Positions 11,076-60,728 of a stretch of 64,000 nucleotides of DNA are shown here, in pieces. The translations under genes were made by a program, and so were the position numbers. A model generated the notes under the pieces. The model saw only the letters and a program-made list of their open reading frames with translations. It was not told the DNA's origin and did not search any database. The stretch is from Escherichia phage UGJNEcP1, in the sequence record OV754623. One strand, written 5' to 3'. How positions within the stretch are numbered: the stretch's first letter is position 1; every line of letters begins with the position of its first letter.

Positions 11076-11339
11076 TCATAGCTCAACTTCCGCCAGTTCC
11101 ATATATCCTTTGTTGATAGTCTCTTTAAGGTCTTTAGAAAGAATGACATTAAAATGGTCGTTCATATGTCCGTTAACTAAACGAGTTATTTCGGCTTCAG
11201 ATGACATATAAGGCACGTCTGAGTCCCAATGAGATAGTCCCAAATGGGTATAAATCATCCCTTCGTCATCTGCAGTGTTGTACATTGAAACAAATTCGCC
11301 TGTTACTTTATGTTTTGCGTAGAAAAATTTAAATTTCAT
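11076..11339 (-). CDS. Hypothetical protein (87 aa)
   Basis: ORF downstream of an early promoter. Confidence 0.5.
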   Translation of the reverse strand: MKFKFFYAKHKVTGEFVSMYNTADDEGMIYTHLGLSHWDSDVPYMSSEAEITRLVNGHMNDHFNVILSKDLKETINKGYMELAEVEL

Positions 11340-11365
11340 AATGTTATCCTCTTTTAGATAGGACT

Positions 11366-11395
11366 ACTATAACATAGTCCTACTTAGTTGTAAAC
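11366..11395 (-). promoter_or_regulatory. Sigma70-type early promoter
   Basis: GTTTAC, 18 nt, TATAGT; inverted repeat AGGACTA..TAGTCCT flanks -10. Confidence 0.55.
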
Positions 11396-11407
11396 ACTTT
11401 TATGAAA

Positions 11408-11884
11408 TTAAAGATGAAGATACCACCCGTTGTAGTTGCTCTTGCGGACGATTTTCTTTAGGTCTTCATGGTCTCCCACAAACTTTATAGAATAAGAGAA
11501 GACGTCAGGTGAGGTTTCTTTGACATCTAATATAATAATGCAATCTGCGACTCGATGATTCAAGAAGGGCCCTATATTGATTCCATTACCACCCGGATAA
11601 TCACCGCTGTATCCTGTGGTAACCGAAATCCATTTAGAATCTATCTGATGGGTCTTTACTTCTACGCGTAGACCACAGTACTTAGGATGAGCTAAAACGT
11701 CCCACGCATACGTGTACGGGTCTTCTACGTCTTCAATACCTTTATTAACATATCCGTCTAGCCAATTTGCTACTACGTACTCTGCAAAGACCGCAACCTT
11801 ACAACGTCGAACTACATCTTCTTTGTTTTGGTCAGGATTTTGGCTCAGGGAATACCGAGCAGTGTCAGCAATCTTCACCTTCAT
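11408..11884 (-). CDS. Hypothetical protein at the denB position (possible nuclease)
   Basis: About 158 aa from the internal Met (MKVKIADTARY...); positional analogue of T4 denB between ndd and rIIB; family not verifiable by eye. Confidence 0.4.
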   Translation of the reverse strand: MKVKIADTARYSLSQNPDQNKEDVVRRCKVAVFAEYVVANWLDGYVNKGIEDVEDPYTYAWDVLAHPKYCGLRVEVKTHQIDSKWISVTTGYSGDYPGGNGINIGPFLNHRVADCIIILDVKETSPDVFSYSIKFVGDHEDLKKIVRKSNYNGWYLHL

Positions 11885-11900
11885 TTCACTAGTCAAAAAC

Positions 11901-12188
11901 TCATTCGACAGGATAAATGTCGGAAGATTCTTCAGTCTCAACAGTCCCAAGTTCGTCTTTACCATAGATACCTCTGATGTGTAGTTCGCCAAAATAAATG
12001 CGGTCACCTTCTTCAAGATATTCAGCATCTACAGATGGAATTTCAATAACAACTTCGTCGCATTCTAACCAGCCGTAGTGTGCATCACCAGGATGTTTTA
12101 CCAATTTAGCACAATAAACTGATTTACACTTATGATGACCACGAAGATTAGCAATTTTGGATTCTGATACGTCAAATGGATGAATCAT
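11901..12188 (-). CDS. Hypothetical protein (95 aa)
   Basis: ORF immediately downstream of rIIB. Confidence 0.45.
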   Translation of the reverse strand: MIHPFDVSESKIANLRGHHKCKSVYCAKLVKHPGDAHYGWLECDEVVIEIPSVDAEYLEEGDRIYFGELHIRGIYGKDELGTVETEESSDIYPVE

Positions 12189-12206
12189 AATTACCCCTAA
12201 AGAAAA

Positions 12207-12228
12207 AAGGGGACCGAAGTCCCCAATT
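12207..12228 (-). terminator. Rho-independent terminator downstream of rIIB
   Basis: Minus-strand hairpin ggggacttcggtcccc followed by TTTTTTT. Confidence 0.6.
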
Positions 12229-12229
12229 A

Positions 12230-13177
12230 TTATTCTGCAAATAATTCAGTAACGTCTGAAATTACTTCATAACGACATGTACGCATCTTAGCATCACCAT
12301 AGTCAACTGGGATGGATACAACATCACGTGGATGAACTTTAACCTTAACAACTTTATCTGAGCTAGAACCAAAGTAACGAATATATGATTTAGCACAAAC
12401 GTGGAGACCGCGAGAACAGGTTTGTGTATCATCGTCGTTAACTCGAGTACGAGGCATTGAAACAACTTTACCAGGCGAGTTATCAAATGTGCCACTATAG
12501 CAATCTAAATAGTCTTTACGAACTACTTTCCATGCATAGAAATACCCATCTTCAGTGATTTCAATATCGTTTGCAACCAAGAAGTCGAATAAACGTTGTA
12601 CAGCTTTTTCGCTTGGGTTTTCTAACAGGTTTTCAAGGAATGGCAGATAGAATTTAAAGTCTTCACCTTTTTCCATGGAATCAATAATACGGTTAACCAG
12701 CCCTGAACGAATCTCTATACCTTGATAAAATAAACTACCACCTTCAATAGTAACATTACCGTCAACAAACTTACTAATAGCTTTCTTGATGTTAATAAGT
12801 TCGACAGCTTTACTAAGGTTTCCTGCGACCAAATTAGCTTTAATTTCTTCAAAATTTGCATGACTTGATGGGGTCGCATTGTATGCTACGCGTCCTTCAA
12901 TGATTGAAATAAATTTAGATGACGCGTTCCATATGATTTCAGGACGATGTCCGCCGATAATAGGTTCATCATTTTCTGGAACTTCTTCGATTACATAAGA
13001 GGCATCGTTTGCTTCAGGGACAACGCCTTCAGCTTTAAAATTCTTAACAATCTTACGAAGAGTATCTGTTGAAATGTCGAAGTAATCGGCAATTTCTTTA
13101 CGAGTCCATTTGCCTGATTCAACCAGGCCGTAAGCTTCTAACTGTTCTTCTTGGGACAAGCATTTGATATTGTACAT
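12230..13177 (-). CDS. rIIB: rIIB protein
   Basis: 315 aa; MYNIKCL start, long stretches (FDFLVANDIEITEDGYFYAWKVVR, TQTCSRGLHVC.KSYIR.FGSS) match T4 rIIB. Confidence 0.9.
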   Translation of the reverse strand: MYNIKCLSQEEQLEAYGLVESGKWTRKEIADYFDISTDTLRKIVKNFKAEGVVPEANDASYVIEEVPENDEPIIGGHRPEIIWNASSKFISIIEGRVAYNATPSSHANFEEIKANLVAGNLSKAVELINIKKAISKFVDGNVTIEGGSLFYQGIEIRSGLVNRIIDSMEKGEDFKFYLPFLENLLENPSEKAVQRLFDFLVANDIEITEDGYFYAWKVVRKDYLDCYSGTFDNSPGKVVSMPRTRVNDDDTQTCSRGLHVCAKSYIRYFGSSSDKVVKVKVHPRDVVSIPVDYGDAKMRTCRYEVISDVTELFAE

Positions 13178-13186
13178 AATGTTTCC

Positions 13187-15400
13187 TTATTTGGCCGCTT
13201 CCACGGCCTTCATGAATTTAACGATTTGAGCGACCTGTTCTTTTGAAAGAGTACCACGTCGTCCCATGTATTCTGACACAATATGATAATTGGTTTCAAA
13301 TTCAATAACCATTTTATCATCATTATCGTAAGCATTATCTTTAAGCTTATCGAAAATTTTAGCACACAATTCTAACTTCCTGTTCAGGTCTGTATTAGTA
13401 GCACCTGCGAATCGATTCCATCCCCAGCGATTATTTACTGTTGAGAGTTTTGCAAAGTCTTTACTGATTTCTTTGTTCTTAGAGCTAAAATACTTACTAA
13501 GGAAGTTAAGCTCTTCATTACGAGTAATATGATTCAAATAAGGCTGTGCTCTACGACTTGGTGATACATACTCATCATAATCTACTTTATCGATTAGCAT
13601 AATATAGTCATTAATTGATTTTTCAAACAAACATTCTACTTCACCAAGTTTACGAACTTTCTTAGCAATCTGTGGGCGAACTACAGTGAACTCTTTAATA
13701 CCTGACAAATCGGCAATACGAGTCAAGAAATTAGAATCATAGTTCAACCAACCTTTATCTGCGTCAAGACATTCAGCGTTAGAACGATTACGAATTACAA
13801 CATAACCTTGAATCTCATCAGCTTTACCGGCCGGAATAAAGAGATCTTCTGATACCCAAACATCGTTTTCATTCTTAAAGAACCGATGAGCACTCGGCGA
13901 TTTAGGACGAGGCTGCGATGAACGTTCTTTAACTTCAATCCACGGTTTAACTAATGCAAGAATTTCAGATGTCTTATAAAATTTAAGGCTATCACCAGCG
14001 AAAATAACCTTTAATCGTTCCAGAAGTTTCATTGCAACTTCATCTTCCGGGTTAATGAATAATACGCTACTACCCCATCCGGAAGGAACCTTATCAACGA
14101 GTGTTGATGCATCGGTGGAAGTCAAAGCATCGTTCAGAGCACGCATCATTGGTACGCGGCCTTTCACATCGTCAATAACGATATCAATATGCTTACGACT
14201 AATACCTAGCAGGCTATTAATTGAAATAGTTGCAGACGAGCTTCCGCTTTCACGAATACGACGAAGTCGTGGGTCTGAAACGATATCATATACAACGCCA
14301 AGGTTGCACCATTCAGGTCCCATTTTAAAACGTTTGTACAACTCAGAATAAGTTAGTTGTTCTTTAGAGTATTTCAGTGATTCAATATTAGAACCGGCTT
14401 TTTCCATATATTTACGAGCAGAGTAACCAAGAGAATCGATTTCACGGAATACATGACGTGGATATTCACAATCAATCCATTTCTTAGAATCTTCAGCAAA
14501 TAATTTTGCATCGATTTCTGCAACACGTTTATGGATATTTGCTACTGTACGTTTATCAAATGACAATGCTTCACGAGACGGGGCTACATCTAGTTCACCC
14601 ATAGGGAATTTAATATAAGCTGTAGTGCATCGCGTCATCATCCATGTTTGTTCTTTAATAACACTTCCGATTGGATATACAATACCGCCATAAACAGCCA
14701 TGATATTACCACGTTCACCCCATGGAGCTTCCTTGGCCAAATATACATCGTCAAATTCAGGAAAGTATTTAATATCTTTAACACCGCGAACTTCTGCAAT
14801 ATCACCTAGAGGACGCATAACATATGCAATTTCAGATGCGAACTTTTCAAAATCTTCTGGGTTAACAGGTACAACTACTTCTACACCCGTACGGTCATCA
14901 GGACCCATCTTATCTACAAAGGTTGGCTTAATCTGTGGACCACTGTCATCTTGGTAGATTACGTAACCACGAACTTCACCGTTGTGATAAGACGTAAGGT
15001 TAAACGTATCAGTATATGCTAGCGGAGCTTTAGAGCCGAGTCCGAATCCACCAATGAAATCGTTACTCGATGTTTTAGTTGAAGCAAAATATGAGTTATA
15101 GATTCCTGGCTCTTCGTCATTACCTCGAATGGTGAAATCACTCATACCAGGACCAAAGTCTCGAACTACAAAACGTGGGTCTAAACGACCTGGTGCCTGA
15201 ACAATAAACTTATCAGTGCAACCATTAAGAATTTGTCCATCGATACAGTTTGTGATTAATTCACGTACACAAGCCAATTCTTTGTTTGTATAAAGGTCAT
15301 TAGACAAAATCTTATAAACTTTGCTATTGCCTTGAATAGTAAATGCTGTGCTCTTACCGCCTGAACCAATAATCGTTTCTTTAGCCGTTTCAATAATCAT
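13187..15400 (-). CDS. rIIA: rIIA protein (GHKL ATPase-like)
   Basis: 737 aa; position upstream of rIIB; N-terminal ATPase-like region with Gly-rich loops (DFGPGM, GGFGLGSK). Confidence 0.85.
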   Translation of the reverse strand: MIIETAKETIIGSGGKSTAFTIQGNSKVYKILSNDLYTNKELACVRELITNCIDGQILNGCTDKFIVQAPGRLDPRFVVRDFGPGMSDFTIRGNDEEPGIYNSYFASTKTSSNDFIGGFGLGSKAPLAYTDTFNLTSYHNGEVRGYVIYQDDSGPQIKPTFVDKMGPDDRTGVEVVVPVNPEDFEKFASEIAYVMRPLGDIAEVRGVKDIKYFPEFDDVYLAKEAPWGERGNIMAVYGGIVYPIGSVIKEQTWMMTRCTTAYIKFPMGELDVAPSREALSFDKRTVANIHKRVAEIDAKLFAEDSKKWIDCEYPRHVFREIDSLGYSARKYMEKAGSNIESLKYSKEQLTYSELYKRFKMGPEWCNLGVVYDIVSDPRLRRIRESGSSSATISINSLLGISRKHIDIVIDDVKGRVPMMRALNDALTSTDASTLVDKVPSGWGSSVLFINPEDEVAMKLLERLKVIFAGDSLKFYKTSEILALVKPWIEVKERSSQPRPKSPSAHRFFKNENDVWVSEDLFIPAGKADEIQGYVVIRNRSNAECLDADKGWLNYDSNFLTRIADLSGIKEFTVVRPQIAKKVRKLGEVECLFEKSINDYIMLIDKVDYDEYVSPSRRAQPYLNHITRNEELNFLSKYFSSKNKEISKDFAKLSTVNNRWGWNRFAGATNTDLNRKLELCAKIFDKLKDNAYDNDDKMVIEFETNYHIVSEYMGRRGTLSKEQVAQIVKFMKAVEAAK

Positions 15401-15412
15401 ATTTTTCTCTCA

Positions 15413-15613
15413 TCACAAGTTACGTTTAAAAATTTCTGCCACTTCGAGAAGTTCTTCTTTAGTAGCTGTATCGGTTTGTATTTTATATCGAATTTCTTTA
15501 AAGCGTTCTTTAAAGGACTCTGCTGACTCGATATCAAAAAATCTTTGGATAAGCCGGAATTCCCGGAGCACTGCTTTATCAAAAAGTTCCAAGTCCACGT
15601 TATATGTTCTCAT
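15413..15613 (-). CDS. Hypothetical protein (rIIA.1 position)
   Basis: 66-aa ORF directly upstream of rIIA. Confidence 0.45.
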   Translation of the reverse strand: MRTYNVDLELFDKAVLREFRLIQRFFDIESAESFKERFKEIRYKIQTDTATKEELLEVAEIFKRNL

Positions 15614-37060: not shown

Positions 37061-37609
37061 TTAACGAGCCCATTTAATGATTTCTGTAATCAAATTATTA
37101 CGTTCGCTTGCATTAAATCCTATAACTTTGTTAGAACCATCATGATTAAGTAATTGATACGTTTGGATTTTGTTATGAATTGCAAACTCTTCAAAATGTG
37201 AAATGACTGTATTAAAACCGAATGAAGACAAAGTAATAAGGTCGTCTTCAAAACTTTCAGTCATTTCGTTACGTGTTAAAATAATTGTGAACACATCATG
37301 GTTTTGGCAAAGACGAACATAATCCTGTTCATAAACGTCAAGAACCGAGTCCGCATCTTGTCGAATACGTCCATAAACCCAGTTACTAATATATCCACGG
37401 TCTAATAGATAAATCTTAGTAGGGTCTAAATAATTCAACATCGTTTCGAAACAGCCAACTTCATTTCGAGACTTAACATCGAAACGCCCATCAACTGTTC
37501 GTTTAGGGAAATCAATCTTTACATATCTTTCACTAATTTCCATTATATCATTAATGAAAGTTGTTTTACCAGCATTATCCGGCCCGTCTACTAAAATAAT
37601 TTTAGCCAT
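37061..37609 (-). CDS. Thymidylate-kinase-like P-loop nucleotide kinase
   Basis: 182 aa; Walker A GPDNAGKTT near the N-terminus and DRGYISNWVYG resembling the Tmk DR-Y..S..AY substrate motif. Confidence 0.55.
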   Translation of the reverse strand: MAKIILVDGPDNAGKTTFINDIMEISERYVKIDFPKRTVDGRFDVKSRNEVGCFETMLNYLDPTKIYLLDRGYISNWVYGRIRQDADSVLDVYEQDYVRLCQNHDVFTIILTRNEMTESFEDDLITLSSFGFNTVISHFEEFAIHNKIQTYQLLNHDGSNKVIGFNASERNNLITEIIKWAR

Positions 37610-37610
37610 T

Positions 37611-38510
37611 TTATTCCTCGATTACGACATCTTCGTATTTAGGTATATTATACGGTGAAGAAATTAAAGCATTAAAGTAGATGAACTCACCAAGACCTGG
37701 ATGGAATACTTCTTCAGGATTTTCGAAATATTGAATCTTCGGACGTCCTTTAAGAATTTGATAGTACTCAGTTTTAGTTGGATTAAAAATTCGAATCAGC
37801 GCTTCTTCAGGATACTTATTTCTGTCGAAACTATTATTTGGATCAGTTATATAAAGCGGTTGACCTAATTGAATTGCGCATTCAACCACTTGTTCAAAAC
37901 GATAGCATGGGTCACTAATTCGAAATGGATGAAAAATACCATCTAGATGAATAGGAGCCAAATCACCTACAAGACGCTGCATGACGGAAGGACGTATAAC
38001 TTTCTGCGTTACGATAATCTTATTACCATCTGCACCTGCGTTAACCAGCACTTCTTTTTGACGTTCATTCAACATAGTAGTTTGAAGTGAACGATTAACA
38101 GACAACATGTCGGTTTTTAAGAATTCATCAATATAAAAACGTGGTTTATTAGGGTCTGCAGTGATATTGAAATTGAATTCTACATCAAAAGCGCCGTCAT
38201 ATCCAGTGATATCTGTGATTAGAAAATCACAATCATAATAAGCAATTAATGAATCAACCACAAATTCATTTTCAGACCAAAAATATTTACGAGTGTTATA
38301 CGCGTTATCTTTATACCATAATGGAACAAACTTAAATTCTGGGAAAAGACGTTCACATTCTTTAATATCAGATGCATTACGTGGATATGTAATCACATCA
38401 CCCGGATTAGCACGGTGCAAATGAAGTTGGAAGTTGCCATCCTTAAGGATAGCATACTGTCCAGTTTCATAAGACCGCATACTCAAGATAGGTACGCGGA
38501 AAATAGCCAT
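37611..38510 (-). CDS. Hypothetical protein in the beta-gt slot (candidate DNA-modifying enzyme)
   Basis: 299-aa ORF directly downstream of and overlapping gene 42; positional analogue of T4 beta-gt; no clear family motif. Confidence 0.45.
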   Translation of the reverse strand: MAIFRVPILSMRSYETGQYAILKDGNFQLHLHRANPGDVITYPRNASDIKECERLFPEFKFVPLWYKDNAYNTRKYFWSENEFVVDSLIAYYDCDFLITDITGYDGAFDVEFNFNITADPNKPRFYIDEFLKTDMLSVNRSLQTTMLNERQKEVLVNAGADGNKIIVTQKVIRPSVMQRLVGDLAPIHLDGIFHPFRISDPCYRFEQVVECAIQLGQPLYITDPNNSFDRNKYPEEALIRIFNPTKTEYYQILKGRPKIQYFENPEEVFHPGLGEFIYFNALISSPYNIPKYEDVVIEE

Positions 38511-39226
38511 TAGTCAAGGAATCCTTTAACATAATCAAAATCACGTTCAAACACATGGGCACTTACCATGGTATGAGTATAATCACCAACTTCTACACCA
38601 CATTCGTTAGCGATATAATGAAGTAATTTTCCTTGGAGATAAAAATCCAACTGCATAACAACAGCACAGTTCTGGGAACGCATATGACAGTGGGTATAAA
38701 GCTTACCATCACGAATATAATAAGTCACTGAGTCAGTACATGGATATTCAAGCGTTTCGTCCGAATCAAGCAAAGCCTGATCAGAACTTTCTAGAATTTG
38801 GAACACAACTCTTCGGGAGTTAGGCTTCTCTTTAAGTTCTTTTAGAAGAGCTGGTAATTGAGCCGCAATGCGAGGGCCATAGAAAGTGTTGAAGTTCGCC
38901 GGCAAAACATCTGATTTTGGTTTAGAAATAAATTTAGCGACATTAGGATATGCCTTAAACGCTTCTTCTGCGTTGGTACCACCAGAAATCATAAACTTCC
39001 AGAAGTCTTCGGCATATTCATAAGAGATGCGGTTAATACGTGGGTCGGTCATTTTGAATGATGATGGAGTGTCAACAACCACTGTCATAGACCCAATTTC
39101 ATTACAACGTCCAATACGAGAATCAGTTACGAATTCCGGGTTTTCTAAAATTTCACGATTGACTGCTTTAAATGCGGCTTGAAAATCTGCGGCTTTGATA
39201 TATTTCATTGTGTTATGTTTTCCCAT
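38510..39226 (-). CDS. 42: dCMP hydroxymethylase gp42 (thymidylate-synthase fold)
   Basis: 238 aa; EYPCTDSVTYYIRDGKL...HMRSQN aligns with T4 gp42 catalytic Cys region MCTNTVQYLIRD...NMRSND. Confidence 0.7.
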   Translation of the reverse strand: MGKHNTMKYIKAADFQAAFKAVNREILENPEFVTDSRIGRCNEIGSMTVVVDTPSSFKMTDPRINRISYEYAEDFWKFMISGGTNAEEAFKAYPNVAKFISKPKSDVLPANFNTFYGPRIAAQLPALLKELKEKPNSRRVVFQILESSDQALLDSDETLEYPCTDSVTYYIRDGKLYTHCHMRSQNCAVVMQLDFYLQGKLLHYIANECGVEVGDYTHTMVSAHVFERDFDYVKGFLD

Positions 39227-39268: not shown

Positions 39269-39508
39269 TTATTTGAATTTCTTGACAATGTTGATATAAC
39301 GTAAAGCTTCAGCATCGATACTTCCAAGAACACTATGAAGAAATGCATCAGCGTAATATTCTAGTTGAACAGGTTCTTTAATCACTTTAGCCGCTTTAGT
39401 TTCAAACAGGCCCATCAGGGCCTTTTTAAGAATTTGTTCGTTAGTGTTCAGTTTAATAGTCAAAATCTCTTCGTTAAGTTGGTGGTTAAAAGTTTTTCTA
39501 GAAATCAT
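39269..39508 (-). CDS. Hypothetical protein (79 aa)
   Basis: ORF between the U32-like gene and gene 42; start overlaps the upstream stop. Confidence 0.45.
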   Translation of the reverse strand: MISRKTFNHQLNEEILTIKLNTNEQILKKALMGLFETKAAKVIKEPVQLEYYADAFLHSVLGSIDAEALRYINIVKKFK

Positions 39509-40665
39509 TCCGGGTACCTCAAAGCGTCATCAGAGTTAGTTATATCAATAATAGATATAGAGTTTTCTGCTAACCCGTTTTTAGATAATTGACGTTTATA
39601 ATATCTTTCACAATATGTACACGTCGTCCCGCAGATTTCATTAGCACAATCGAAATCTGGATGTCTGAACCACCTTTTTTCTAAAAAGCCATCTAACAAA
39701 GAGGTTTCAATATTTACTGTATGTGAAAACTCAGTTTCGTTTTCAAGAGTGAAAATAGTCTCTAAAGGCTTCCACAGTTCTAACAAATTACCTTCAAACT
39801 TTTCAGAAGCGTATGCTTCAAGAACTTTCAAAATGTAGTCTGTGCTACCTGTACGTCCTGAAACTTTGAATTGAGTGATACCAATATCATTATAAAGTTT
39901 CAAATCTTGAGGACGAACAAAACGAGTTCTCAACCAGTTAAATGGGTCTGTATCACGAGCTTTAATACAGTGCTGCATAGGATATCCGTTTAAGGATTTA
40001 GCATCATCGGCTGTAACATCAGTACTATGGAAAATATAGCAAGAGTCACGATAGCTACAATGTGTTGTATACCCTTTACCAGCATTAGAACAGAACTCAT
40101 TTACAAGAACTTCAAATATTATATTGTTCTTATTGCAAAACTCTGCTGCACGCTTCAGGAAAGAAACTGAACGGTTCTTATGAATTCCACAGCAGACCTT
40201 TTTGATATTATATTGGTCATGCAAGTATTTGATTTGAGTTACAGCATCGACATGTAGAATTGTTGAAACTTCAATCTCAATGTCTTTATTGACTTCACGA
40301 ACAATTTCCATAACAACAGGGTTAGCGATAGTAATACGCCATACGCCTATTGACCAAAGATACTGAACATAATCCTGAATAGCTTTCTTCTTCCACTCAA
40401 CTAGTTCTCTTTTTGAACCAGGATTTATCGTGTTGAGTGTATAGTTAAAGCAAATACCTAATTCGTTACAACGTTTAACGTAATCTTCTAACATCTTTTT
40501 GTCAACGTCAGGAAGCCTAAAATCAGGTCTGGCTGCTACAAAAGCCATTTCTCTTGTAGAGCCGTATACTTCATTTATCAAGCTATTAGGATAAGTTTTA
40601 TTGAGCTCTACGATTTTATCAAGAAGAGCTAAATCAAAATTCGTTCCGATTTTAAAAGTATTCAT
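39505..40665 (-). CDS. Cys-rich protein resembling peptidase U32 family (TIM-barrel, Fe-S type)
   Basis: 386 aa; N-terminal FKIGTNFDLALL..INEVYGS and central NRSVSFLKRA...EVLVNEFCSNAGKGYTTHC resemble the U32 signature region; C-terminal CANEICGTTCTYC contains C-x3-C-x2-C. Confidence 0.4.
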   Translation of the reverse strand: MNTFKIGTNFDLALLDKIVELNKTYPNSLINEVYGSTREMAFVAARPDFRLPDVDKKMLEDYVKRCNELGICFNYTLNTINPGSKRELVEWKKKAIQDYVQYLWSIGVWRITIANPVVMEIVREVNKDIEIEVSTILHVDAVTQIKYLHDQYNIKKVCCGIHKNRSVSFLKRAAEFCNKNNIIFEVLVNEFCSNAGKGYTTHCSYRDSCYIFHSTDVTADDAKSLNGYPMQHCIKARDTDPFNWLRTRFVRPQDLKLYNDIGITQFKVSGRTGSTDYILKVLEAYASEKFEGNLLELWKPLETIFTLENETEFSHTVNIETSLLDGFLEKRWFRHPDFDCANEICGTTCTYCERYYKRQLSKNGLAENSISIIDITNSDDALRYPE

Positions 40666-40719: not shown

Positions 40720-41124
40720 TTATTGTAGATTCGGTTTATATGATTTAAATGTTTCGAATTCGCCTTTATTCATAAGAGCTTTGAATTCGTCAGGACGCAT
40801 AGCTTTGTCGTCGATAATCCAATCATATACTGGTTTATGTGTTAGCAAATTATGGTACTTCAAGCCAATGTTTGCCAAGTTCTGAATCAGACTTGGGAGA
40901 ATGTCAATTGCTATACGACCAGGACCTACTGACTTCATACCGCGAGCAGTGTAAAGCGTTATGGTATGCCCTGCATCATACAGGGCATTAATGGCAGACA
41001 CCATTTCGACGTCTGGTTTGAAGTTCACGTAATCACGATTGTTATTCCACTCTGTTATACAATCATCGACATCAAAACAAAGATTAAGCATGTTTTCTAC
41101 ACGGTGCATTAGATTCGTTCCCAT
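40720..41124 (-). CDS. Small HAD-superfamily phosphatase
   Basis: 134 aa; motif I FDVDDCIT, motif II Thr (ITLYTAR), motif III Lys (THKP), motif IV IIDD. Confidence 0.6.
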   Translation of the reverse strand: MGTNLMHRVENMLNLCFDVDDCITEWNNNRDYVNFKPDVEMVSAINALYDAGHTITLYTARGMKSVGPGRIAIDILPSLIQNLANIGLKYHNLLTHKPVYDWIIDDKAMRPDEFKALMNKGEFETFKSYKPNLQ

Positions 41125-42794
41125 TGATGAGTGATATCGCCACCGATTGGACGATAAGAAACACCAGTTTCTTTATCAGTTAGTACCCATTTACCAGGAT
41201 TTTTTGTAATCAGAGTAGCCGTTACAGGCTCTGCTACGTCATAACTAATAGAGCCGTCTTGAAGTACACGGCCCATGTTACGTAATTGCTTAGTCAGAAG
41301 TTCCATACCTTTATAATATGCGGCTACCGCTTTAAGTGGATTATTCTTGAAATAACCACCTAATGCAATCCAGATAATTGCCACCGCCAAATGATGATAC
41401 TCGTTAAACGAACTCATCTTTCCATATTTGTAAATTAATGGATTGATGTTAATAGTCACATTACAAGTTGTTTCATCAATAGTAAACTGTCCCCAGGTCG
41501 GATTAGCATTGAATTCATCATAACCTGAAACAGCATAAAGCACTTTAGCTTCATCGTACAATTTTGGCCCGTAAATCTTGGTTTCGCCAAAATATCCACG
41601 AGGGTCGATAAACTTGACTTCGCCGTTATCAGTAATCATAGTATTACTGAAGTTCGGGTCACCGTGAATAACAGAGTACTGTCCCTGAGAACGGTTATGA
41701 TAACGAATAAGGTGTTCTAAAGCTTGTTTCAGCATTGGCTTCAGACGTCCAATCTTAGTGTAGTTCACGTGTGTGATTTTACCAAATGAATCAATCAATG
41801 GTTGAATGCTTTCACAACGATCAATAACTTTCGTATAGAATTCTTTAGTGAAATCACGACGAACAGTTTCAGGACTTACAAAATAAGTGTCTGTGCTGAA
41901 TTTCAGTGCATCTAAAATTGCATCAACAATTTGTGGACGAGCAAGACTTGATTTGGATTTAATATATTCAAATGCCGGCTTACCTTTAATGCGTTCCATT
42001 TCAAAGTTATTTTCATTAACAGAAACTAACTGAGGAACTGAATCTGATTTCACTTTAAGATACCATGAAATCTCATCTTTCTGAAGAGCTCGGCCCTGTT
42101 CGGTTAATGCGAATTTAGTTACAGTTTCTTCACCAATTTCAACTGCATTAAAACTACGATTAAGTTCACGAACTTCATGAGCCTTTTCAAGTTTAGGCAT
42201 ATCACCTAAATCAATTAGATTCATAAGCTCTGATTTATTGAATGCACTCCCGTAAAGGAATTCTACAAAATCACGTCCTTTGCAATATTCGTGAATTTCC
42301 TCATCAGTAGAACCCATGTAGAATTCCCAGTCTTTGAACTGATAAATTCCTACAACATTACCACCTGTTGAACCTACGTTAGTGATATTTTCACCGTCGA
42401 AATTATATCGACATTCGTCACCCTTAACATAGATTGCGTTAACATTCCAAGACCATGAACCAAAATCAGGAATAATATCACACCAGTTAACAATTACGTT
42501 ATGGCCGTCTAAATCTTTGTGTAATTTAGCAAGAGCATAAGCAGAACCATACGCTTCATCAACTGTACGAATAGTCACATTGAACCCTTCTTGCTCACAA
42601 TAAGCTCGAACAGTTTCAGCAAATTTTGAATGAACTACTACAATAATTTCATCTGCGCCAAGGTCAGAATAAATTGTATACAAATTGCTCAGAATAGTGT
42701 CTTGTTTATAGTTAACAAGCACCTTAGGAATATGATGCGTTATTGGATACAAACGAGTTGCCAGTCCAGCACCAAGAATAACAGCTTTTTTCAT
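41109..42794 (-). CDS. Bifunctional sugar-1-phosphate nucleotidyltransferase / APH-like kinase
   Basis: 561 aa; N-terminal RmlA/GlmU-type signature AVILGAGLATRLYPIT; C-terminal HGDPNFSNTMI and FIDPRG resemble the catalytic loop of aminoglycoside/choline/anomeric-sugar kinases; RBS gagga. Confidence 0.65.
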   Translation of the reverse strand: MKKAVILGAGLATRLYPITHHIPKVLVNYKQDTILSNLYTIYSDLGADEIIVVVHSKFAETVRAYCEQEGFNVTIRTVDEAYGSAYALAKLHKDLDGHNVIVNWCDIIPDFGSWSWNVNAIYVKGDECRYNFDGENITNVGSTGGNVVGIYQFKDWEFYMGSTDEEIHEYCKGRDFVEFLYGSAFNKSELMNLIDLGDMPKLEKAHEVRELNRSFNAVEIGEETVTKFALTEQGRALQKDEISWYLKVKSDSVPQLVSVNENNFEMERIKGKPAFEYIKSKSSLARPQIVDAILDALKFSTDTYFVSPETVRRDFTKEFYTKVIDRCESIQPLIDSFGKITHVNYTKIGRLKPMLKQALEHLIRYHNRSQGQYSVIHGDPNFSNTMITDNGEVKFIDPRGYFGETKIYGPKLYDEAKVLYAVSGYDEFNANPTWGQFTIDETTCNVTININPLIYKYGKMSSFNEYHHLAVAIIWIALGGYFKNNPLKAVAAYYKGMELLTKQLRNMGRVLQDGSISYDVAEPVTATLITKNPGKWVLTDKETGVSYRPIGGDITHQWERI

Positions 42795-42835: not shown

Positions 42836-42979
42836 CTAGTTAAAGCATTCATACTTTGCTTGTAGTCCAATCATAATCCATCCGATTATAAGAGTCGGAA
42901 TCATTACCGGAGCCGTTAAGCTCCAGTAGATAGTCATGACAAGCATCAATAGTAAAAGTCCTATTGTTATTGCTTTCAT
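42836..42979 (-). CDS. Small membrane protein (about 47 aa)
   Basis: Hand-translated MKAITIGLLLLMLVMTIYWSLTAPVMIPTLIIGWIMIGLQAKYECFN; ATGA overlap with the SIS gene stop; below the track cutoff. Confidence 0.4.
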   Translation of the reverse strand: MKAITIGLLLLMLVMTIYWSLTAPVMIPTLIIGWIMIGLQAKYECFN

Positions 42980-43611
42980 TGTTCGCCTCGTAACATGGCA
43001 CCTAGTGCACCGCCTGGATGGAACTTAAGGAAGTCATTAGAGGTAAATCCACGTTCAGACGAAAGGTTGATAGCAAACGTATCGATAAGCGCTAACAACA
43101 ATGTAGTGGACATAGTCGGAGCCAGAGAATTCTCATCAACCTCTACCGCGATGCCTGTACAGAAAGAGTAATCAAAAAGGGCTTCATTTTCTTGCGGAAT
43201 GTCTGGGTTACAATGCAACAGAATCTGTTTGACGTTCGGTCGAATCATTTTAAGATGCTTAGCCACGCCTATCATTTCTTCAGTTTTACCAGAACGACTA
43301 ATATGAATCAACACATCATTAGGCGCAATGAATCCTGCGTCACCGTGAGAATAATGTCCAGTGTTCAAGTACATACTCGGGATACCGAGTGAAGCAAATG
43401 TCTCAGAAGCTTTAGTTGCAATATTAGCATTCTTACCAACACCTGTAATAATTACTCGGCTTTCATAATTACTAAGTCCAGGGCGTCGAAGAGTTTCTAG
43501 AATAGCATTATAACGAGCAGGGTTTTGACTAATTACTTTGGCCATAGCGGCCAAAGAAGAAGCTTGTTTTATGATTGCGTCAATAGCGATAGTAATAGGA
43601 GTAGTTTTCAT
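42976..43611 (-). CDS. SIS-domain sugar-phosphate isomerase, KdsD/KpsF-type arabinose-5-phosphate isomerase-like
   Basis: 211 aa; ITGVGKNANIATKASETFASLGIPS, HGDAGF, ISRSGKTEE, LAPTMSTT and FHPGGALG align with KdsD GMGKSGHIGKK.AATFASTGTPS / HGDLGM / ISNSGE / LAPTSSTT / HPGGALG; lacks the CBS domains. Confidence 0.7.
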   Translation of the reverse strand: MKTTPITIAIDAIIKQASSLAAMAKVISQNPARYNAILETLRRPGLSNYESRVIITGVGKNANIATKASETFASLGIPSMYLNTGHYSHGDAGFIAPNDVLIHISRSGKTEEMIGVAKHLKMIRPNVKQILLHCNPDIPQENEALFDYSFCTGIAVEVDENSLAPTMSTTLLLALIDTFAINLSSERGFTSNDFLKFHPGGALGAMLRGEQ

Positions 43612-57973: not shown

Positions 57974-58444
57974 TTAATCATGTTTCCACACCCCATCGGT
58001 ATTTGACCAAAGTCGCTGATTATCTGATCCTCGCCACAGTTTTTTGGTCGGAAGATTTTTCTCATACTTCCCATCAATAATAACATCAACATATTTAAGC
58101 ATTTCTAGCTGTTTAATATCTTCAAACTTATATCCTGTCCACAACCAAATGCTTTTATTGGGATAAAGATTTTTTACTGTTTGAACAATGCAATGAATAA
58201 CATCTCGATTGTCAGGATAGAGAGGGTCACCTCCGGTTATAGTCAATCCTTCTATATAATCATTATTCAAATAATCAATTAATTGTTCTAGTGTCTCTCT
58301 GGTGAATGGAATACCATTTCTAGCATTCCATGTTGATTTATTATAACACCCTTCGCATTTATGCAAACAACCTGTAACGAAAAGAACGACCCTGCAACCA
58401 GGGCCATTCACAAAATCGCAAGGATAAAATCTATCATAATTCAT
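57974..58444 (-). CDS. nrdG: Anaerobic ribonucleotide reductase activating protein NrdG (radical SAM)
   Basis: 156 aa; C-x3-C-x2-C within GCLHKCEGCYN; overlaps the nrdD stop. Confidence 0.85.
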   Translation of the reverse strand: MNYDRFYPCDFVNGPGCRVVLFVTGCLHKCEGCYNKSTWNARNGIPFTRETLEQLIDYLNNDYIEGLTITGGDPLYPDNRDVIHCIVQTVKNLYPNKSIWLWTGYKFEDIKQLEMLKYVDVIIDGKYEKNLPTKKLWRGSDNQRLWSNTDGVWKHD

Positions 58445-60258
58445 TGGTGTTTAACCCTATGCATGATTTCTTTATTTTTACCGAGATTAAATCCGCGTTC
58501 GTTCGGGTTTCCCAAATATCCGCATGTTCTTCTTATGGTGTTCATCTTTTTAGGATCAGTTTCTCCACAAATAGAACAAACAAATCCGTTTTCAGTAGGA
58601 GTCATTTCATGGGTACTTCCGCATGTAAAACATTTATCTACTGGCATATTAACACCAAAATAATCTAAATGTTGTGCAGCATAATCCCATACGGCCTCAA
58701 GACCTTTTAGGTTATTTTTCATATCAGGAAGTTCAACATAAGAAATGTGACCGCCTGTCGCAATGAAATGATATGGTGCTTCACGAGAAATTTTTTCAAA
58801 CGGAGTGATATTTTCTTCTACTGAAACGTGGAAACTGTTAGTGTACCAGCCTTTATCAGTAACATCCTTTACACTTCCATATTTTTCGGTATCAAGTTTA
58901 CAAAAGCGATAACACAAGTTTTCAGCAGGAGTAGAATACAAGCTAAAAGCAAATCCAGTTCTTTCAGTCCACTGTTTAAGATGAGCATTCATTTTAGTCA
59001 AAATTTCCTGACCAATATCACGACCGACAAGAATATTCAATTCGTGAATACCAATGTATCCTAGGGAAACTGAACTTCTACCGTTTTTAAATAACTCAAT
59101 TATATCGTCATCAGGTTTAAGACGAACCCCGAATGCACCTTCTTGGTAAAGAATAGGAGCTACAGTTGCTTTAACACCCTTTAAAGAACTAATTCTACAC
59201 ATCAAGGCTTCAAAACACAAATCCATTCGTTCATTAAATAGCTCAACAAATTTCTGTTCGTTAAATTGTGTTCCAATATAAGAATCTAATGCGATACGAG
59301 GAAGATTCAGTGTTACAACACCAAGATTATTACGTCCATCAAGAATTTCATTACCAGTCGAATCTTTCCATACGCTCAAGAAACTACGGCAACCCATTGG
59401 AGAAACTGGAATTGAAGAACCAGTAATAGCTTTATTATTCTTAACCGAAATAATGTCAGGATACATTCTTTTGCTTGCACATTCTAACGCAAGTTGTTTA
59501 ATATCATAGTTTGGATCATCTTTATAAAGATTAACACCTTCTTCAACAAACATAACAAGTTTAGGAAAAATAGGAGTTATTCCGTCGCGTCCGAGACCTT
59601 TAATACGATTTTTCAGAATTGCCTTCTGAATCATTCGTTCGGTCCAGTCAGTTCCCGTACCAAATGTAATTGTTACAAAAGGCGTTTGTCCGTTTGAACT
59701 AAAGAGAGTATTTACTTCATACTCATACGCTTGAAATGCGTCATAGACATCTTTTTCTGTTTTGGATTGAGCATAATTCAACGCATCAGCGATTTGCCAT
59801 TTTTCTGCATCCTCGATATGTTTTGCATAGGTGCGTTTAACATAAGGAGAAAGAACTTTATCGACATTCGCAAAAGTCGTTCCGCCATATTGATGAGAAG
59901 CAACCTGTGCAGTAATTTGTGCCATAATTGCAGTAGCAACACCAATCGATTTAGGCGTTTCAATTTGAGCATTGCCTAATTTAAATCCATTCTCAAGCAT
60001 CCCCTTTAAATCGACTAAACAGCAATTAGTAAATGGAAGAGCAGGAGAATAATCAATATCATGCATGTGAATGATTCCACTTTCATGCGCATTCATAATA
60101 AAAGACGGGACCATATTTTTGGCAATGTGCTTAGACACAATACCAGCCATAAGGTCCCGTTGAGTTGGAAAAACACGAGAATCTTTATTAGCATTCTCGT
60201 TCAAAAGATCTTTATTAGTTTTATAAATTAATCCTTCAATTTCTTTTTCAATTTTCAT
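58441..60258 (-). CDS. nrdD: Anaerobic ribonucleoside-triphosphate reductase NrdD
   Basis: 605 aa; C-terminal zinc-ribbon cysteines and glycyl-radical motif RRTCGYLG; uninterrupted ORF. Confidence 0.9.
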   Translation of the reverse strand: MKIEKEIEGLIYKTNKDLLNENANKDSRVFPTQRDLMAGIVSKHIAKNMVPSFIMNAHESGIIHMHDIDYSPALPFTNCCLVDLKGMLENGFKLGNAQIETPKSIGVATAIMAQITAQVASHQYGGTTFANVDKVLSPYVKRTYAKHIEDAEKWQIADALNYAQSKTEKDVYDAFQAYEYEVNTLFSSNGQTPFVTITFGTGTDWTERMIQKAILKNRIKGLGRDGITPIFPKLVMFVEEGVNLYKDDPNYDIKQLALECASKRMYPDIISVKNNKAITGSSIPVSPMGCRSFLSVWKDSTGNEILDGRNNLGVVTLNLPRIALDSYIGTQFNEQKFVELFNERMDLCFEALMCRISSLKGVKATVAPILYQEGAFGVRLKPDDDIIELFKNGRSSVSLGYIGIHELNILVGRDIGQEILTKMNAHLKQWTERTGFAFSLYSTPAENLCYRFCKLDTEKYGSVKDVTDKGWYTNSFHVSVEENITPFEKISREAPYHFIATGGHISYVELPDMKNNLKGLEAVWDYAAQHLDYFGVNMPVDKCFTCGSTHEMTPTENGFVCSICGETDPKKMNTIRRTCGYLGNPNERGFNLGKNKEIMHRVKHQ

Positions 60259-60728
60259 TTTAAACTCTTTCTAAGCTGCTTTTTGAATGAAGCTATTAAT
60301 TGTGTTTTAGTATCAGATTCATTATATTCAAATCCTCTTTGAAGCATCTCAGCCATCATTTCCTCTTTACCTAGTCTTGAGAACTCTTTAGTTTTGTCTG
60401 GAACAAAATTAGGATGGATATTATTATCAGAATAATCTTGTTTCAAATAAACAAGAAGAGCTTCAAGCCATTCTAAGTAGTCAACGTTTTGACCTTTCAA
60501 ACCGGAACGGTTGAACTTATGCTTCATTTGACCTTCTGCTGCGTTGCACAGATTACAGAGTAATCCACGAACTCTACCGGCTTTTGGCCCGTTTAATTCG
60601 TGGTCGTGGTCAAGATGGTTACCTTGAACATCAGGGTCTAATTCACGGTGGCAAATAGGACACTTACCGTTCTGTGCATCATAAAATTTTTGTTTTTCTT
60701 CTTTATATTTTGCGCCTGATAATAACAT
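60255..60728 (-). CDS. 49: Endonuclease VII gp49 (Holliday junction resolvase)
   Basis: 157 aa; near-identical to remembered T4 gp49 (KYKEEKQKFYDAQNGKC.IC.REL.PDVQ.NHLDHDHELNGPKAG.VRGLLCNLCNAAEGQMKHKFNRSGLKGQ). Confidence 0.95.
   Translation of the reverse strand: MLLSGAKYKEEKQKFYDAQNGKCPICHRELDPDVQGNHLDHDHELNGPKAGRVRGLLCNLCNAAEGQMKHKFNRSGLKGQNVDYLEWLEALLVYLKQDYSDNNIHPNFVPDKTKEFSRLGKEEMMAEMLQRGFEYNESDTKTQLIASFKKQLRKSLK

Follow-up and report, generated by a model that had tools for sequence, protein, structure and literature searches.

The 64-kb stretch of Escherichia phage UGJNEcP1 analysed here (the window) carries a DNA-modification module whose genes we denote by the names of their RB69 counterparts. 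An initial annotation had placed a 386-aa, cysteine-rich protein resembling the peptidase U32 family at 39505-40665 within such a module. Both the open reading frame and its location among DNA-modification genes were confirmed, and the gene was found to lie on the minus strand, which the annotation had not specified. The features relevant to our analysis are as follows.

37061-37609, minus strand: gp45 orthologue, thymidylate-kinase-like nucleotide kinase (PHROG 761; Table 1 of PMC13326640)
37611-38510, minus strand: gp46:47 orthologue, putative first DNA arabinosyltransferase, a single ORF here
38510-39226, minus strand: gp48 orthologue, thymidylate-synthase (TS)-family, flavin/O2-dependent 5-hydroxy-dCMP synthase (Pfam Thymidylat_synt; PMC13326640)
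39269-39508, minus strand: gp49, 79-aa ORF with a 4-base overlap between its start and the U32 stop codon
39505-40665, minus strand: gp50 orthologue (RB69 gp50/RB69ORF050c), U32 family, 386 aa (ATG-to-stop ORF)
39610-39648, minus strand: C-terminal cluster C340-x4-C345-x3-C349-x2-C352 of gp50, proposed second Fe-S (or Zn) site (sequence, conservation)
39808-40386, minus strand: Peptidase_U32 profile region, gp50 residues 94-286, part of the TIM-barrel-like core (Pfam)
39967-40092, minus strand: core metal-ligand segment C192...C203...C209...C233 of gp50, proposed [4Fe-4S] site (alignment with RlhA, TrhP, UbiU and UbiV; conservation)
40720-41124, minus strand: gp51 orthologue, AfhF-like HAD phosphatase (PHROG 1238; PMC13326640)
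41109-42794, minus strand: gp52:53 orthologue, AfhE-like bifunctional sugar kinase and nucleotidyltransferase, a single ORF here (Pfam; PMC13326640)
42976-43611, minus strand: gp55 orthologue, arabinose-5-phosphate isomerase (Pfam SIS; PHROG 5670; PMC13326640)
57974-60258, minus strand: NrdG activase (57974-58444) and NrdD anaerobic ribonucleotide reductase (58441-60258) (Pfam)

The gp52:53 orthologue showed Pfam NTP_transferase and kinase-like matches, and AfhF-like gp51 converts arabinose-1,5-bisphosphate into arabinose-1-phosphate (PMC13326640). NrdD and NrdG were recognised by NRDD (570 bits), Gly_radical (90 bits) and Fer4_12 (167 bits), indicating that the phage is equipped for DNA precursor synthesis without oxygen. 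A scan for promoters and terminators across 36.9-43.8 kb yielded no more sites than shuffled sequence, so that no separate transcription unit could be called in this region.

The assignment of gp50 to the U32 family held up in profile and fold analyses. The protein matched Pfam Peptidase_U32 (PF01136), its sole Pfam domain, with 42.2 bits (cut-off 22.4) over residues 94-286, and PHROG 5757 with an E value of 5e-267. All 111 aligned homologues either contained PF01136 or shared 46-87% identity with proteins that do, and the AF2 model of gp50 displayed the strand/helix alternation of a U32 TIM-barrel-like fold. The four E. coli U32 paralogues were all remote (local HMM ≤15 bits); in an hhalign ranking with single sequences as templates, RlhA was the best profile match among them (probability 85.7%) and UbiU reached 5.6%. 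The only NCBIfam match was a weak one to quinone_UbiU (18.5 bits, cut-off 440). gp50 is thus not a UbiU/UbiV equivalog, and neither a second U32 gene nor an SCP2-like gene was found in the cluster. It also stands outside the RlhA subfamily, as it lacks DUF3656 and the C-terminal Cys580/Cys611, and the C-terminal cysteines of the two proteins do not align. PDB sequence searches with gp50 and with gp49 returned nothing informative.

Cysteine accounts for 3.4% of gp50 residues, compared with a mean of 1.2% over the 68 ORFs of the window, in agreement with the initial description of a Cys-rich, probably Fe-S-containing protein. The E-x-F-C...C segment mentioned there proved real and reads N189-E190-F191-C192 ... 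C203 ... C209; the C-terminal C-x3-C-x2-C turned out to be part of the longer C340/C345/C349/C352 cluster, the only four-cysteine run in the window. Conservation was evaluated in 128 deep homologues, one representative per 50%-identity cluster. C203 and C233 were present in all 128 sequences and C192 in 127, while the position of C209 was occupied by Cys in 75 and by His in 52; the four C-terminal cysteines were retained in 120-123 of the 128. Across 111 closer homologues, the core ligand segment was invariant. This conservation is well above chance. The canonical U32 signature, the PROSITE pattern E-x-F-x2-G-[SA]-[LIVM]-C-x4-G-x-C-x-[LIVM]-S, spans E161, C169 and C176 of RlhA. gp50 does not match it: the segment FE185VLVNE190FC192SNAGKG198YTTH202C203SYRDSC209 lacks the second cysteine and has an altered spacing, and hence represents a variant motif. 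In the MAFFT register, the canonical second cysteine (C176 of RlhA and UbiU) corresponds to Gly198 of gp50, the column being missing in the deep homologues; the hhalign register differs and places C203 and C209 at C169 and C176 with altered spacing. Related proteins offer precedents for such variation. UbiU and UbiV have each swapped one canonical cysteine for a remote one (PMC10990095), that of UbiU being C232, which may be compared with C233 of gp50, and RlhA needs two core and two C-terminal cysteines (PMC5727448). The ligand sets of gp50 were assigned from conservation. On these grounds, gp50 probably binds two metal clusters, a [4Fe-4S] one through C192/C203/C209/C233 and another through C340/C345/C349/C352, and we regard it as almost certainly a U32 Fe-S enzyme.

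The gene that the initial annotation took for a dCMP hydroxymethylase is in fact gp48. The TS homologue of the window is 98.7% identical to RB69 gp48, and gp48 of this clade has been shown experimentally to be a flavin- and O2-dependent 5-hydroxy-dCMP synthase (PMC13326640). Labelling with 18O2 identified O2 as the oxygen source, and gp48 alone was enough for the formation of 5hodC in aerobic E. coli; RB69 DNA carries 5-hydroxycytosine derivatives only, in arabosylated form (PMC13326640). The pathway as published does not need gp50: each sugar step has been attributed to another gene, and the sugar pathway was reconstituted in the absence of gp50 (PMC13326640). The only label given to gp50 in that work (Table 1 of PMC13326640, NAR 2026) is "sugar or heterocycle reductase", which is based on fold matches to 5d88 alone and is not taken up in the running text of the paper. 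The evidence hence points away from the "extra" oxidative or rearrangement step envisaged by the annotation, and a role on the sugar is unsupported. What stands of that proposal is U32-hydroxylase chemistry as the relevant one; instead of an additional step, we favour a parallel, O2-independent route.

This view draws on the genomic company of U32 genes in related phages. In 11 of 12 sister strabovirus lineages, the gene of a catalytically intact AroQ chorismate mutase adjoins the U32 gene or lies closely downstream of it. The mutase is located between the U32 and TS-homologue genes in Tegunavirus, Kanagawavirus (two members), Mosugukvirus, Winklervirus, Kagamiyamavirus, Bragavirus and Gualtarvirus as well as in a Klebsiella phage and Serratia 92A1; in Shewanella Thanatos-2, the two genes form a pair elsewhere in the cluster. 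These mutases scored 32.8-46.2 bits against Pfam CM_2 (cut-off 27) and retain the EcCM catalytic residues R11, R28, K39, E52, S84 and Q88. They thus resemble the AroQ class represented by the N-terminal domains of E. coli PheA and TyrA in profile and in all six catalytic residues, but differ in being "mini" mutases of 79-125 aa that lack 10 residues between helices 2 and 3 and have N48 instead of D48. A tblastn search of 50,697 phage records found genes of the type present in Edwardsiella phage PEi26 only beside U32/TS genes. No chorismate mutase was detected in Mosigviruses (whole-database tblastn), the gene is also missing from Klebsiella phage Clarke_MM3, and a local HMM of the phage chorismate mutase family revealed nothing credible in the 64-kb window. 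Because the window lacks a mutase, the linkage is, for this genome, inherited from relatives and not observed.

gp49 occupies the position at which sister phages hold this small ORF plus a chorismate mutase. The idea that it might itself be a (degenerate) mutase was rejected: no CM_2/Pfam or NCBIfam match appeared at permissive thresholds, hhalign against the phage mutase family gave a probability of 9%, and BLASTP similarity was absent. In Yersinia TG1 and Serratia 92A1, the homologue of gp49 is the first small ORF, and both phages possess a separate chorismate mutase in addition. Only its N-terminal "M..INH.LNE" recurs in mutases, namely as an N-terminal extension of the 114-aa enzymes of Winklervirus and Kagamiyamavirus. 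In several Mosigviruses, HY126 among them, gp49 is frameshifted or truncated.

The U32 gene was found in 221 phage records, and the hosts among the matches listed were all Enterobacterales or Shewanella. Its position inside the DNA-modification operon is conserved in at least 11 strabovirus lineages. Phage HY126 carries gp50 too, with a dN/dS of 0.01 relative to the gene studied here; across genera, dN of gp50 (0.09-0.17) was below that of gp48 (0.13-0.30). Of the genes in the cluster, gp50 is under the strongest constraint. Homologues of gp48 without a U32 gene occur in phages of the strict aerobes Acinetobacter, Pseudomonas and Rhizobium. Among records with a TS homologue, the U32 gene was present in none of 57 from Acinetobacter phages and none of 20 from Rhizobium phages, and direct checks confirmed its absence from Maestro and PspYZU05. 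The Dhakaviruses of E. coli (VR5) likewise carry the gp48 pathway without the U32 gene, showing that it is not indispensable in an enteric host, and the host correlation could stem from phylogenetic inertia, with perhaps one gain and a few losses. Beyond the straboviruses, the phage-type U32 clade comprised 493 clusters (50% identity) at E ≤ 1e-30, mostly from uncultured phage contigs, many of them jumbo. For viral homologues in IMG/VR (40-55% identity), the commonest neighbour families were DAHP_synth_1, Thymidylate_kin and CM_2. At 11 distant viral loci, the U32 gene was flanked by a DAHP-synthase/chorismate-mutase fusion or a standalone chorismate mutase, and none of these loci held a gp48-type gene. 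Further neighbours encoded dCMP deaminase, thymidylate kinase, dNK, NT5C and dUTPase/DCD as well as a TET-associated glycosyltransferase and UDP-galactopyranose mutase.

The association with chorismate mutase suggests a chemistry, as prephenate is the oxygen donor of, or a requirement for, UbiUV, RlhA and TrhP (PMC10990095, PMC5727448, PMC6599085). RlhA (YdcP), the 5-hydroxycytidine-2501 synthase of E. coli 23S rRNA, has the U32 core in common with gp50 and converts cytosine C5-H to C5-OH, which is the reaction we propose for gp50. It requires prephenate and Fe-S biogenesis in addition to its core and C-terminal cysteines (PMC5727448). Whereas RlhA comprises 653 aa with DUF3656 and acts on an rRNA precursor, gp50 is only about 20% identical to it, has no Cys equivalent to C176 and features its own CX4CX3CX2C cluster. 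TrhP and TrhO serve as the conceptual template. They produce tRNA 5-hydroxyuridine redundantly in one organism, covering anoxic and oxic life (PMC6599085), and the prephenate-dependent U32 protein TrhP and the unrelated, O2-dependent TrhO would be paralleled by gp50 and gp48. In the TrhP/TrhO system, however, the substrate is tRNA, TrhO is a rhodanese and not a TS homologue, and the redundancy was demonstrated genetically, whereas that of gp50 and gp48 is deduced. UbiU-UbiV are Fe-S U32 proteins for which prephenate was identified as oxygen donor by 18O labelling (PMC10990095), and they have flavin/O2-dependent counterparts (UbiI/H/F) for the same steps, much as gp50 would have in gp48. UbiU-UbiV hold two clusters per functional unit and form a heterodimer that works with lipid-binding UbiT on a lipid substrate, whereas gp50 is a single polypeptide that possibly contains both clusters. 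A minimal U32 protein, Mk0906 of Methanopyrus kandleri (PDB 5d88; 247 aa, 14% identity), has no counterpart of the approximately 100-residue C-terminal extension of gp50 that bears the four-cysteine cluster. gp48 of RB69, with its homologue in HY126, is adjacent to gp50 in the same operon and makes the product proposed for gp50, but with an unrelated fold and cofactor, with O2 as oxygen source and with experimental proof.

The pairing with chorismate mutase, together with the TrhO/TrhP and UbiIHF/UbiUV precedents, argues for a parallel, O2-independent route to the same C5 hydroxylation. We consider it likely that gp50 is a prephenate-using hydroxylase. Its reaction would resemble those of RlhA, TrhP and UbiU-UbiV: an aromatic carbon would be hydroxylated in the absence of O2, with prephenate donating the oxygen atom and ending up as phenylpyruvate and CO2. 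With less assurance, we take the target to be cytosine C5 of the arabinosyl-5-hydroxycytosine pathway, and on balance we prefer to view gp50 as the anaerobic counterpart of gp48, a cytosine C5 hydroxylase that depends on prephenate and not on O2. The most plausible form of the substrate would be dCMP, yielding 5-hydroxy-dCMP, the product that gp48 forms only with O2; action at the mononucleotide level is, however, a tentative part of the proposal. The phage would then possess aerobic and anaerobic routes to its replacement base, in parallel with its aerobic and anaerobic ribonucleotide reductases, and the anaerobic route would be needed for replication in the anoxic gut. Sister phages would supply prephenate through their own chorismate mutase, while Mosigviruses would have lost this enzyme and draw on host PheA/TyrA. 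In the literature searched, which excluded He et al. 2026 and Mahler et al. 2025, an oxygen-free role for gp50 was neither proposed nor tested. Nor did any publication in it connect phage U32 proteins with arabinosyl modification or, in the relevant sense, with prephenate, or chorismate mutase with bacteriophage DNA modification and prephenate.

RlhA and TrhP, the two characterised nucleobase U32 enzymes, use RNA polymers and not mononucleotides, which speaks against dCMP as the substrate. gp50 might accordingly be a prephenate-dependent hydroxylase of a polymer, either of cytosines in new phage DNA as a post-replicative patch or of host or phage RNA. In the RNA version, tRNA U34 or rRNA C2501 would be the targets, tuning translation during infection. 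Such a role would accommodate the extra conserved C-terminal tail of strabovirus U32 proteins, which could be a docking peptide, and one metagenomic locus in which the U32 gene adjoins the TET-associated glycosyltransferase, a member of a DNA-acting family. Yet the C-terminal domains associated with RNA in RlhA (DUF3656) and TrhP are missing from gp50, the host already has both of these enzymes, and the U32 gene is always found among nucleotide-level enzymes (TS homologue, nucleotide kinases, dCMP deaminase, dNK and NT5C). We therefore judge a polymer substrate unlikely, though worth keeping in view.

The label "sugar or heterocycle reductase" comes from those who characterised the pathway, and gp48 requires reduced flavin, for which PMC13326640 identified no dedicated reductase. 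It could thus be argued that gp50 is a redox helper that passes electrons to the FMN of gp48, or that it reduces or rearranges a sugar nucleotide; two probable metal clusters would fit electron transfer. This explanation appears improbable to us: the label derives from 5d88 fold matches, no U32 protein is known to be a reductase, distant phages have the U32 gene without a gp48-type partner, the reconstituted sugar pathway did not include gp50, and there would be no reason for chorismate mutase or DAHP synthase genes to accompany the U32 gene time and again. Weaker still is the notion of an auxiliary metabolic module in which chorismate mutase and U32 protein would draw off chorismate and prephenate and thereby alter the aromatic or quinone metabolism of the host, such as UbiU/V-like ubiquinone synthesis under anaerobic conditions. 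The sole NCBIfam match of gp50 is indeed UbiU, and the DAHP synthase added in some distant phages resembles pathway boosting. That match lies far under its cut-off, a UbiV/UbiT partner is missing, and both the conserved place in the DNA-modification operon and the nucleotide enzymes beside distant homologues speak for another role, so that we give this scenario very little credence. The protease reading, found in many GenBank records ("peptidase", "collagenase-like protease" or "putative protease") and in a family name that goes back to PrtC-type collagenolytic activity (PMC5727448), was rejected as scarcely credible, given that no proteolytic mechanism is known for the family, that conservation falls on arginines and on Cys/His metal ligands, and that the gene is surrounded by nucleotide and DNA-modification functions in every context.

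An O2-independent cytosine hydroxylase would bear on a question raised by the published pathway. RB69-like enteric phages destroy dCTP. Their published arabinosyl-5-hydroxycytosine pathway depends on an O2-requiring hydroxylase, yet they carry an anaerobic ribonucleotide reductase, and how these phages replicate in the anoxic gut was not addressed in the literature searched. If the proposal is true, gp50 would be the first viral prephenate-dependent U32 hydroxylase and the first U32 hydroxylase tied to DNA rather than to RNA or quinones. It would also be a small, soluble, single-chain candidate for in vitro work on a family of which no member has yet been reconstituted (PMC10990095). More speculatively, the whole phage-type U32 clade may represent a general viral O2-independent nucleobase hydroxylase, fuelled by phage chorismate mutase or DAHP-synthase/chorismate-mutase genes. 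As parts of this same speculative reading, the U32 protein would replace the TET dioxygenases or TS-family enzymes of oxic settings, would seed undescribed pyrimidines, hydroxylated and glycosylated, in phage DNA from anoxic habitats, and would be the physiologically dominant 5-hydroxycytosine route in RB69-like gut phages, where gp48 would serve as a back-up under aerobic conditions. Confirmation of the proposal for gp50 would in itself give a function to the chorismate mutase and DAHP synthase genes of viruses, and the large U32 family of uncultured phages would become a marker of unknown hydroxylated DNA bases. For phage-therapy candidates (Mosigvirus and the Klebsiella, Proteus and Yersinia straboviruses), DNA protection might differ between the oxic laboratory and the anoxic infection site, and restriction and CRISPR sensitivity might consequently differ between oxic tests and anoxic sites.

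The U32-family gene gp50 is an open reading frame with an ATG start and 386 codons on the minus strand (39505-40665). It is the orthologue of RB69ORF050c/gp50 (protein identity 99.5%) and lies in a region that matches Escherichia phage UGJNEcP2 over its whole length without a difference and RB69 (Mosigvirus, Straboviridae) at 98.4% identity. The initial annotation had described a Cys-rich, U32-like protein of 386 aa here, and the ORF call, a Cys content of 3.4% (window average 1.2%) and the only four-Cys run of the window bore this observation out. The C-terminal C-x3-C-x2-C cluster was present as well, but is part of a fuller motif, C340-x4-C345-x3-C349-x2-C352, and the minus strand has to be added. 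The genes of the modification cluster are all on the minus strand and closely packed; in transcription order they are:

42976-43611 (-), arabinose-5-phosphate isomerase (gp55), first of the genes listed
41109-42794 (-), bifunctional sugar kinase/nucleotidyltransferase (gp52:53), second
40720-41124 (-), HAD phosphatase (gp51), third, directly before the U32 gene
39505-40665 (-), U32 gene (gp50), fourth
39269-39508 (-), gp49, a 79-aa ORF with its start overlapping the stop codon of the U32 gene
38510-39226 (-), thymidylate-synthase (TS) homologue (gp48), after gp49
37611-38510 (-), glycosyltransferase, after the TS homologue
37061-37609 (-), thymidylate-kinase-like kinase, last of the genes listed

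Where the RB69 reference shows two split genes (ORF046c/047c and ORF052c/053c), the present phage has one intact ORF each (37611-38510, 299 aa; 41109-42794, 561 aa), which fits a published assertion attributing the RB69 splits to errors in sequencing. In RB69 DNA, cytosine is replaced by mono- and di-arabinosylated 5-hydroxycytosine (Lee et al., NAR 2026, PMC13326640). The neighbour that had been taken for a dCMP hydroxymethylase, gp48, is instead a flavin-binding 5-hydroxy-dCMP synthase whose oxygen comes from O2, as demonstrated by 18O2 labelling; the same paper credits in vitro confirmation of the activity to He et al. 2026 and allots the sugar-activation steps to gp55, gp52:53 and gp51 (PMC13326640).

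Among 111 homologues (46-87% identity), C158, C192, C203, C209, C233, C340, C345, C349 and C352 were invariant. In 128 deeper representatives, C192 was retained in 127, C203 and C233 in all, and the four C-terminal cysteines in 120-123. At position 209, 75 of them have Cys and 52 have His, a swap that would be expected of a metal ligand. C158 is unlikely to be a ligand, as its conservation fell to 72/128. K267 and R271 of the U32 'K-x-x-G-R' motif were invariant throughout the deeper set. MAFFT aligned C192 with RlhA/UbiU C169 and C203 with UbiU/UbiV C193, and placed C209 near UbiV C197 and Gly198 at the RlhA/UbiU C176 position, while hhalign gave another register (C203/C209 = C169/C176). Either register predicts four ligand-like core residues and a second four-Cys site, with C233 recalling the remote ligand C232 of UbiU. 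We infer two clusters on a single gp50 chain, which would be functionally alike to the two-cluster pair UbiU-UbiV. As gp50 does not match the canonical PROSITE-type U32 motif and is about as far from each of the four E. coli paralogues (RlhA, TrhP, UbiU, UbiV) as from the others, it represents a distinct U32 subfamily. In straboviruses the U32 protein closes with a tail of ~25 aa that is modelled at low confidence (pLDDT < 55; residues ~362-386, 39508-39582 (-)); the metagenomic homologues lack this tail, which may be a docking peptide. Its terminal motif D-[DE]-x-L-R-Y-P-E is kept in three of four aligned genera; Shewanella phage Thanatos-2 ends in S-D-A-L-R-Y-S-E.

The U32 enzymes UbiU-UbiV, RlhA and TrhP depend on prephenate. 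In the O2-independent, UbiU-UbiV-dependent hydroxylations of ubiquinone synthesis it is the oxygen donor, as revealed by 18O-shikimate labelling (PMC10990095). According to the same paper, no U32 enzyme has so far been reconstituted in vitro. RlhA is needed for 5-hydroxycytidine at position 2501 of 23S rRNA and requires prephenate, Fe-S biogenesis, two core and two C-terminal cysteines (PMC5727448). tRNA 5-hydroxyuridine is formed redundantly by TrhP (U32, prephenate-dependent, O2-independent) and the O2-dependent TrhO (PMC6599085), so that the cell already pairs both enzyme types for a single product. Exactly the reaction that the phage pathway needs, cytosine C5 hydroxylation, thus falls within known U32 chemistry. 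We favour, with moderate confidence, the reading that gp50 is a prephenate-dependent, O2-independent hydroxylase supplying 5-hydroxycytosine in anoxia. Its product would most simply be 5-hydroxy-dCMP, made when oxygen is absent; gp48 would be the O2-dependent partner and gp50 the anaerobic counterpart for the same base. The same chemistry could act on DNA or RNA polymers, the latter being where RlhA and TrhP products reside; we consider this a rather unlikely alternative.

Both the gp50 gene and its placement in the U32 family have been on record since 2006. Earlier papers list its Pfam match and nothing more, and the Thanatos phage paper modelled the U32 homologue without comment. Lee et al. 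name gp50 in Table 1 only, as a 'sugar or heterocycle reductase' on the basis of fold hits to 5d88; their text omits gp50, and the words U32, peptidase and prephenate are absent from the paper. Their Discussion notes that RNA pyrimidine hydroxylation pathways exist, citing the RlhA and TrhP work, and draws no tie to gp50 (PMC13326640). That gp50 is an electron-transfer or reductase helper, in keeping with this label, appears improbable to us. Among the papers searched, none joins U32, phage and prephenate.

The U32 protein occurred in 221 phage records, in every case with an identity of 80% or more, with Escherichia, Shigella, Klebsiella, Serratia, Proteus, Yersinia, Enterobacter, Providencia, Edwardsiella, Pectobacterium and Shewanella as host or organism names among the matches listed. 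In Enterobacter phage Entb_45, the NCBI pipeline annotated a small ORF directly 3' of the U32 gene as 'chorismate mutase' (CM). The product of this enzyme is prephenate. When ORFs between the U32 and TS-homologue genes of 12 non-Mosigvirus genomes were searched with Pfam CM_2 (AroQ; gathering score 27), 11 yielded a domain above threshold (32.8-46.2 bits): Yersinia TG1, Serratia 92A1, Klebsiella CP-p-KP-21072, Proteus phiP4-3, Edwardsiella PEi26, Pectobacterium PM2, Serratia CBH8, Escherichia EcS1, Providencia PSTRCR_127, Enterobacter Entb_45 and Shewanella Thanatos-2. In Thanatos-2, the U32-CM pair is shifted as one unit to a different cluster position. Alignment with the CM domains of E. coli PheA/TyrA showed R11, R28, K39, E52 and S84 to be invariant and Q88 to be kept in every phage sequence aligned; these six are the active-site residues of EcCM (structure 1ECM). 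A tblastn search of 50,697 phage records with one phage CM detected this gene type only beside U32/TS genes. Klebsiella phage vB_KpnM_Clarke_MM3 is an exception, with the TS homologue directly after the U32 gene and neither small ORF nor CM.

Mosigviruses carry gp49 at the position where their sisters carry CM. As a chorismate mutase gp49 was rejected, the proteins being unrelated; its homologue in Yersinia TG1 and Serratia 92A1 is an additional small ORF present there alongside CM. It evolves fast (39269-39508 (-); dN/dS 0.17-0.24), and several Mosigviruses carry frameshifted, shortened or truncated versions (40 aa in the isolate HY126); related entries occur at the comparison loci L022:5715-5837, L004:5197-5394 and L005:4989-5213. 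In Serratia CBH8 and Escherichia EcS1, the N-terminal 'M..INH.LNE' of gp49 recurs as an N-terminal extension of the 114-aa CMs, suggesting that genes were fused in these two phages. No chorismate mutase was found in the 64-kb window or elsewhere in Mosigvirus genomes. Despite this absence, the U32 gene is under very strong purifying selection (dN/dS 0.010 against HY126, dS 0.11; 0.07 against RB69), and comparisons across genera gave it a dN of 0.09-0.17, below the 0.13-0.30 of gp48, whose enzymatic activity is proven. Because E. coli RlhA, TrhP and UbiUV run on PheA/TyrA prephenate (PMC10990095, PMC5727448), the phage enzyme could, by analogy, use the same host supply.

Outside Straboviridae, metagenomic U32 homologues form a large family (~360 aa, 40-58% identical; 493 clusters at 50% identity and E <= 1e-30 in a profile search). 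An IMG/VR scan yielded 33 divergent viral U32 loci, many on contigs of 127-294 kb. For 26 of them, Pfam annotation of two genes upstream and two downstream (102 neighbours) gave DAHP_synth_1 (6), Thymidylate_kin (6) and CM_2 (5) as the commonest families. Screening of every ORF at the divergent loci by local HMM/phmmer revealed DAHP-synthase/chorismate-mutase fusions beside the U32 gene at five (e.g., L060: DAHP_synth_1 125 bits, CM_2 65 bits), standalone CMs that overlap the 3' terminus of the U32 gene at six, DAHP synthase alone at two, and a gp48-type TS homologue at none. The fusions (L057, L058, L060, L061, L071; 320-372 aa, CM domain C-terminal in L060) mostly precede a HAD hydrolase gene, after which comes the U32 gene; that viruses encode the first committed step of the shikimate pathway has apparently not been discussed. 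This recurrence in divergent loci indicates that the tie of the U32 gene to the prephenate pathway is old and recurrent. Other U32 neighbours were dCMP deaminase, thymidylate kinase, UDG and DnaE (L017, L020). An ENA scaffold (L018, LEMO22-1...scaffold_150; 8001-15428) carries two U32 genes with radical-SAM/SPASM, NT5C (5'-deoxynucleotidase), deoxynucleoside kinase, NMN transporter and nucleoside deoxyribosyltransferase genes; an adjoining giant dockerin/GH43 protein makes a cellulolytic, anaerobic Firmicute the probable host. Loci L017, L028 and L029 likewise have a radical-SAM/SPASM gene close to the U32 gene. Metagenomic contig SRR33454321_1371 (L027; 5495-13179) encodes a TET-associated glycosyltransferase, then dUTPase/DCD (dCTP-deaminase) and UDP-galactopyranose mutase; no TET or TS-family hydroxylase was seen nearby, and the locus resembles a full, though uncharacterised, cassette for hydroxyl-plus-glycosyl modification of DNA. 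With such nucleotide-enzyme neighbours and no gp48-type gene, the U32 clade operates in deoxynucleotide/DNA-modification settings even without the flavin hydroxylase. For gp50, a metabolic-hijack module is a very improbable reading, and a protease role is hardly worth entertaining. As far as checked, the proposed function, the CM and DAHP-synthase partners and the large viral U32 subfamily are undescribed.

The proposed anaerobic hydroxylase would act in a phage that is built for O2-free dNTP synthesis, since it encodes the class III anaerobic ribonucleotide reductase NrdD (58441-60258 (-)) and its activase NrdG (57974-58444 (-)). Both genes lie ~18 kb from the modification cluster, beside an endonuclease VII gene (60255-60728). 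The sole published route to the replacement base needs O2 (PMC13326640). Phage records with a gene of the gp48 type number 373, among them those of 57 Acinetobacter and 20 Rhizobium phages; the U32 gene, by host names among the matches listed, occurs only in phages of Enterobacterales or Shewanella, which are facultative anaerobes. A direct check did not find it in Acinetobacter phage Maestro or Pseudomonas phage PspYZU05, and the published DLP3 cluster lacks it (PMC13326640). E. coli Dhakavirus VR5 has the TS-homologue cluster without U32 gene, CM or annotated arabinose-5-phosphate isomerase. This host pattern may stem from few evolutionary events. The proposal addresses an unasked but obvious question, namely how 5-hydroxycytosine phages replicate in anoxia, is directly testable by existing assays, and points towards DNA modifications of unknown nature among uncultured phages.
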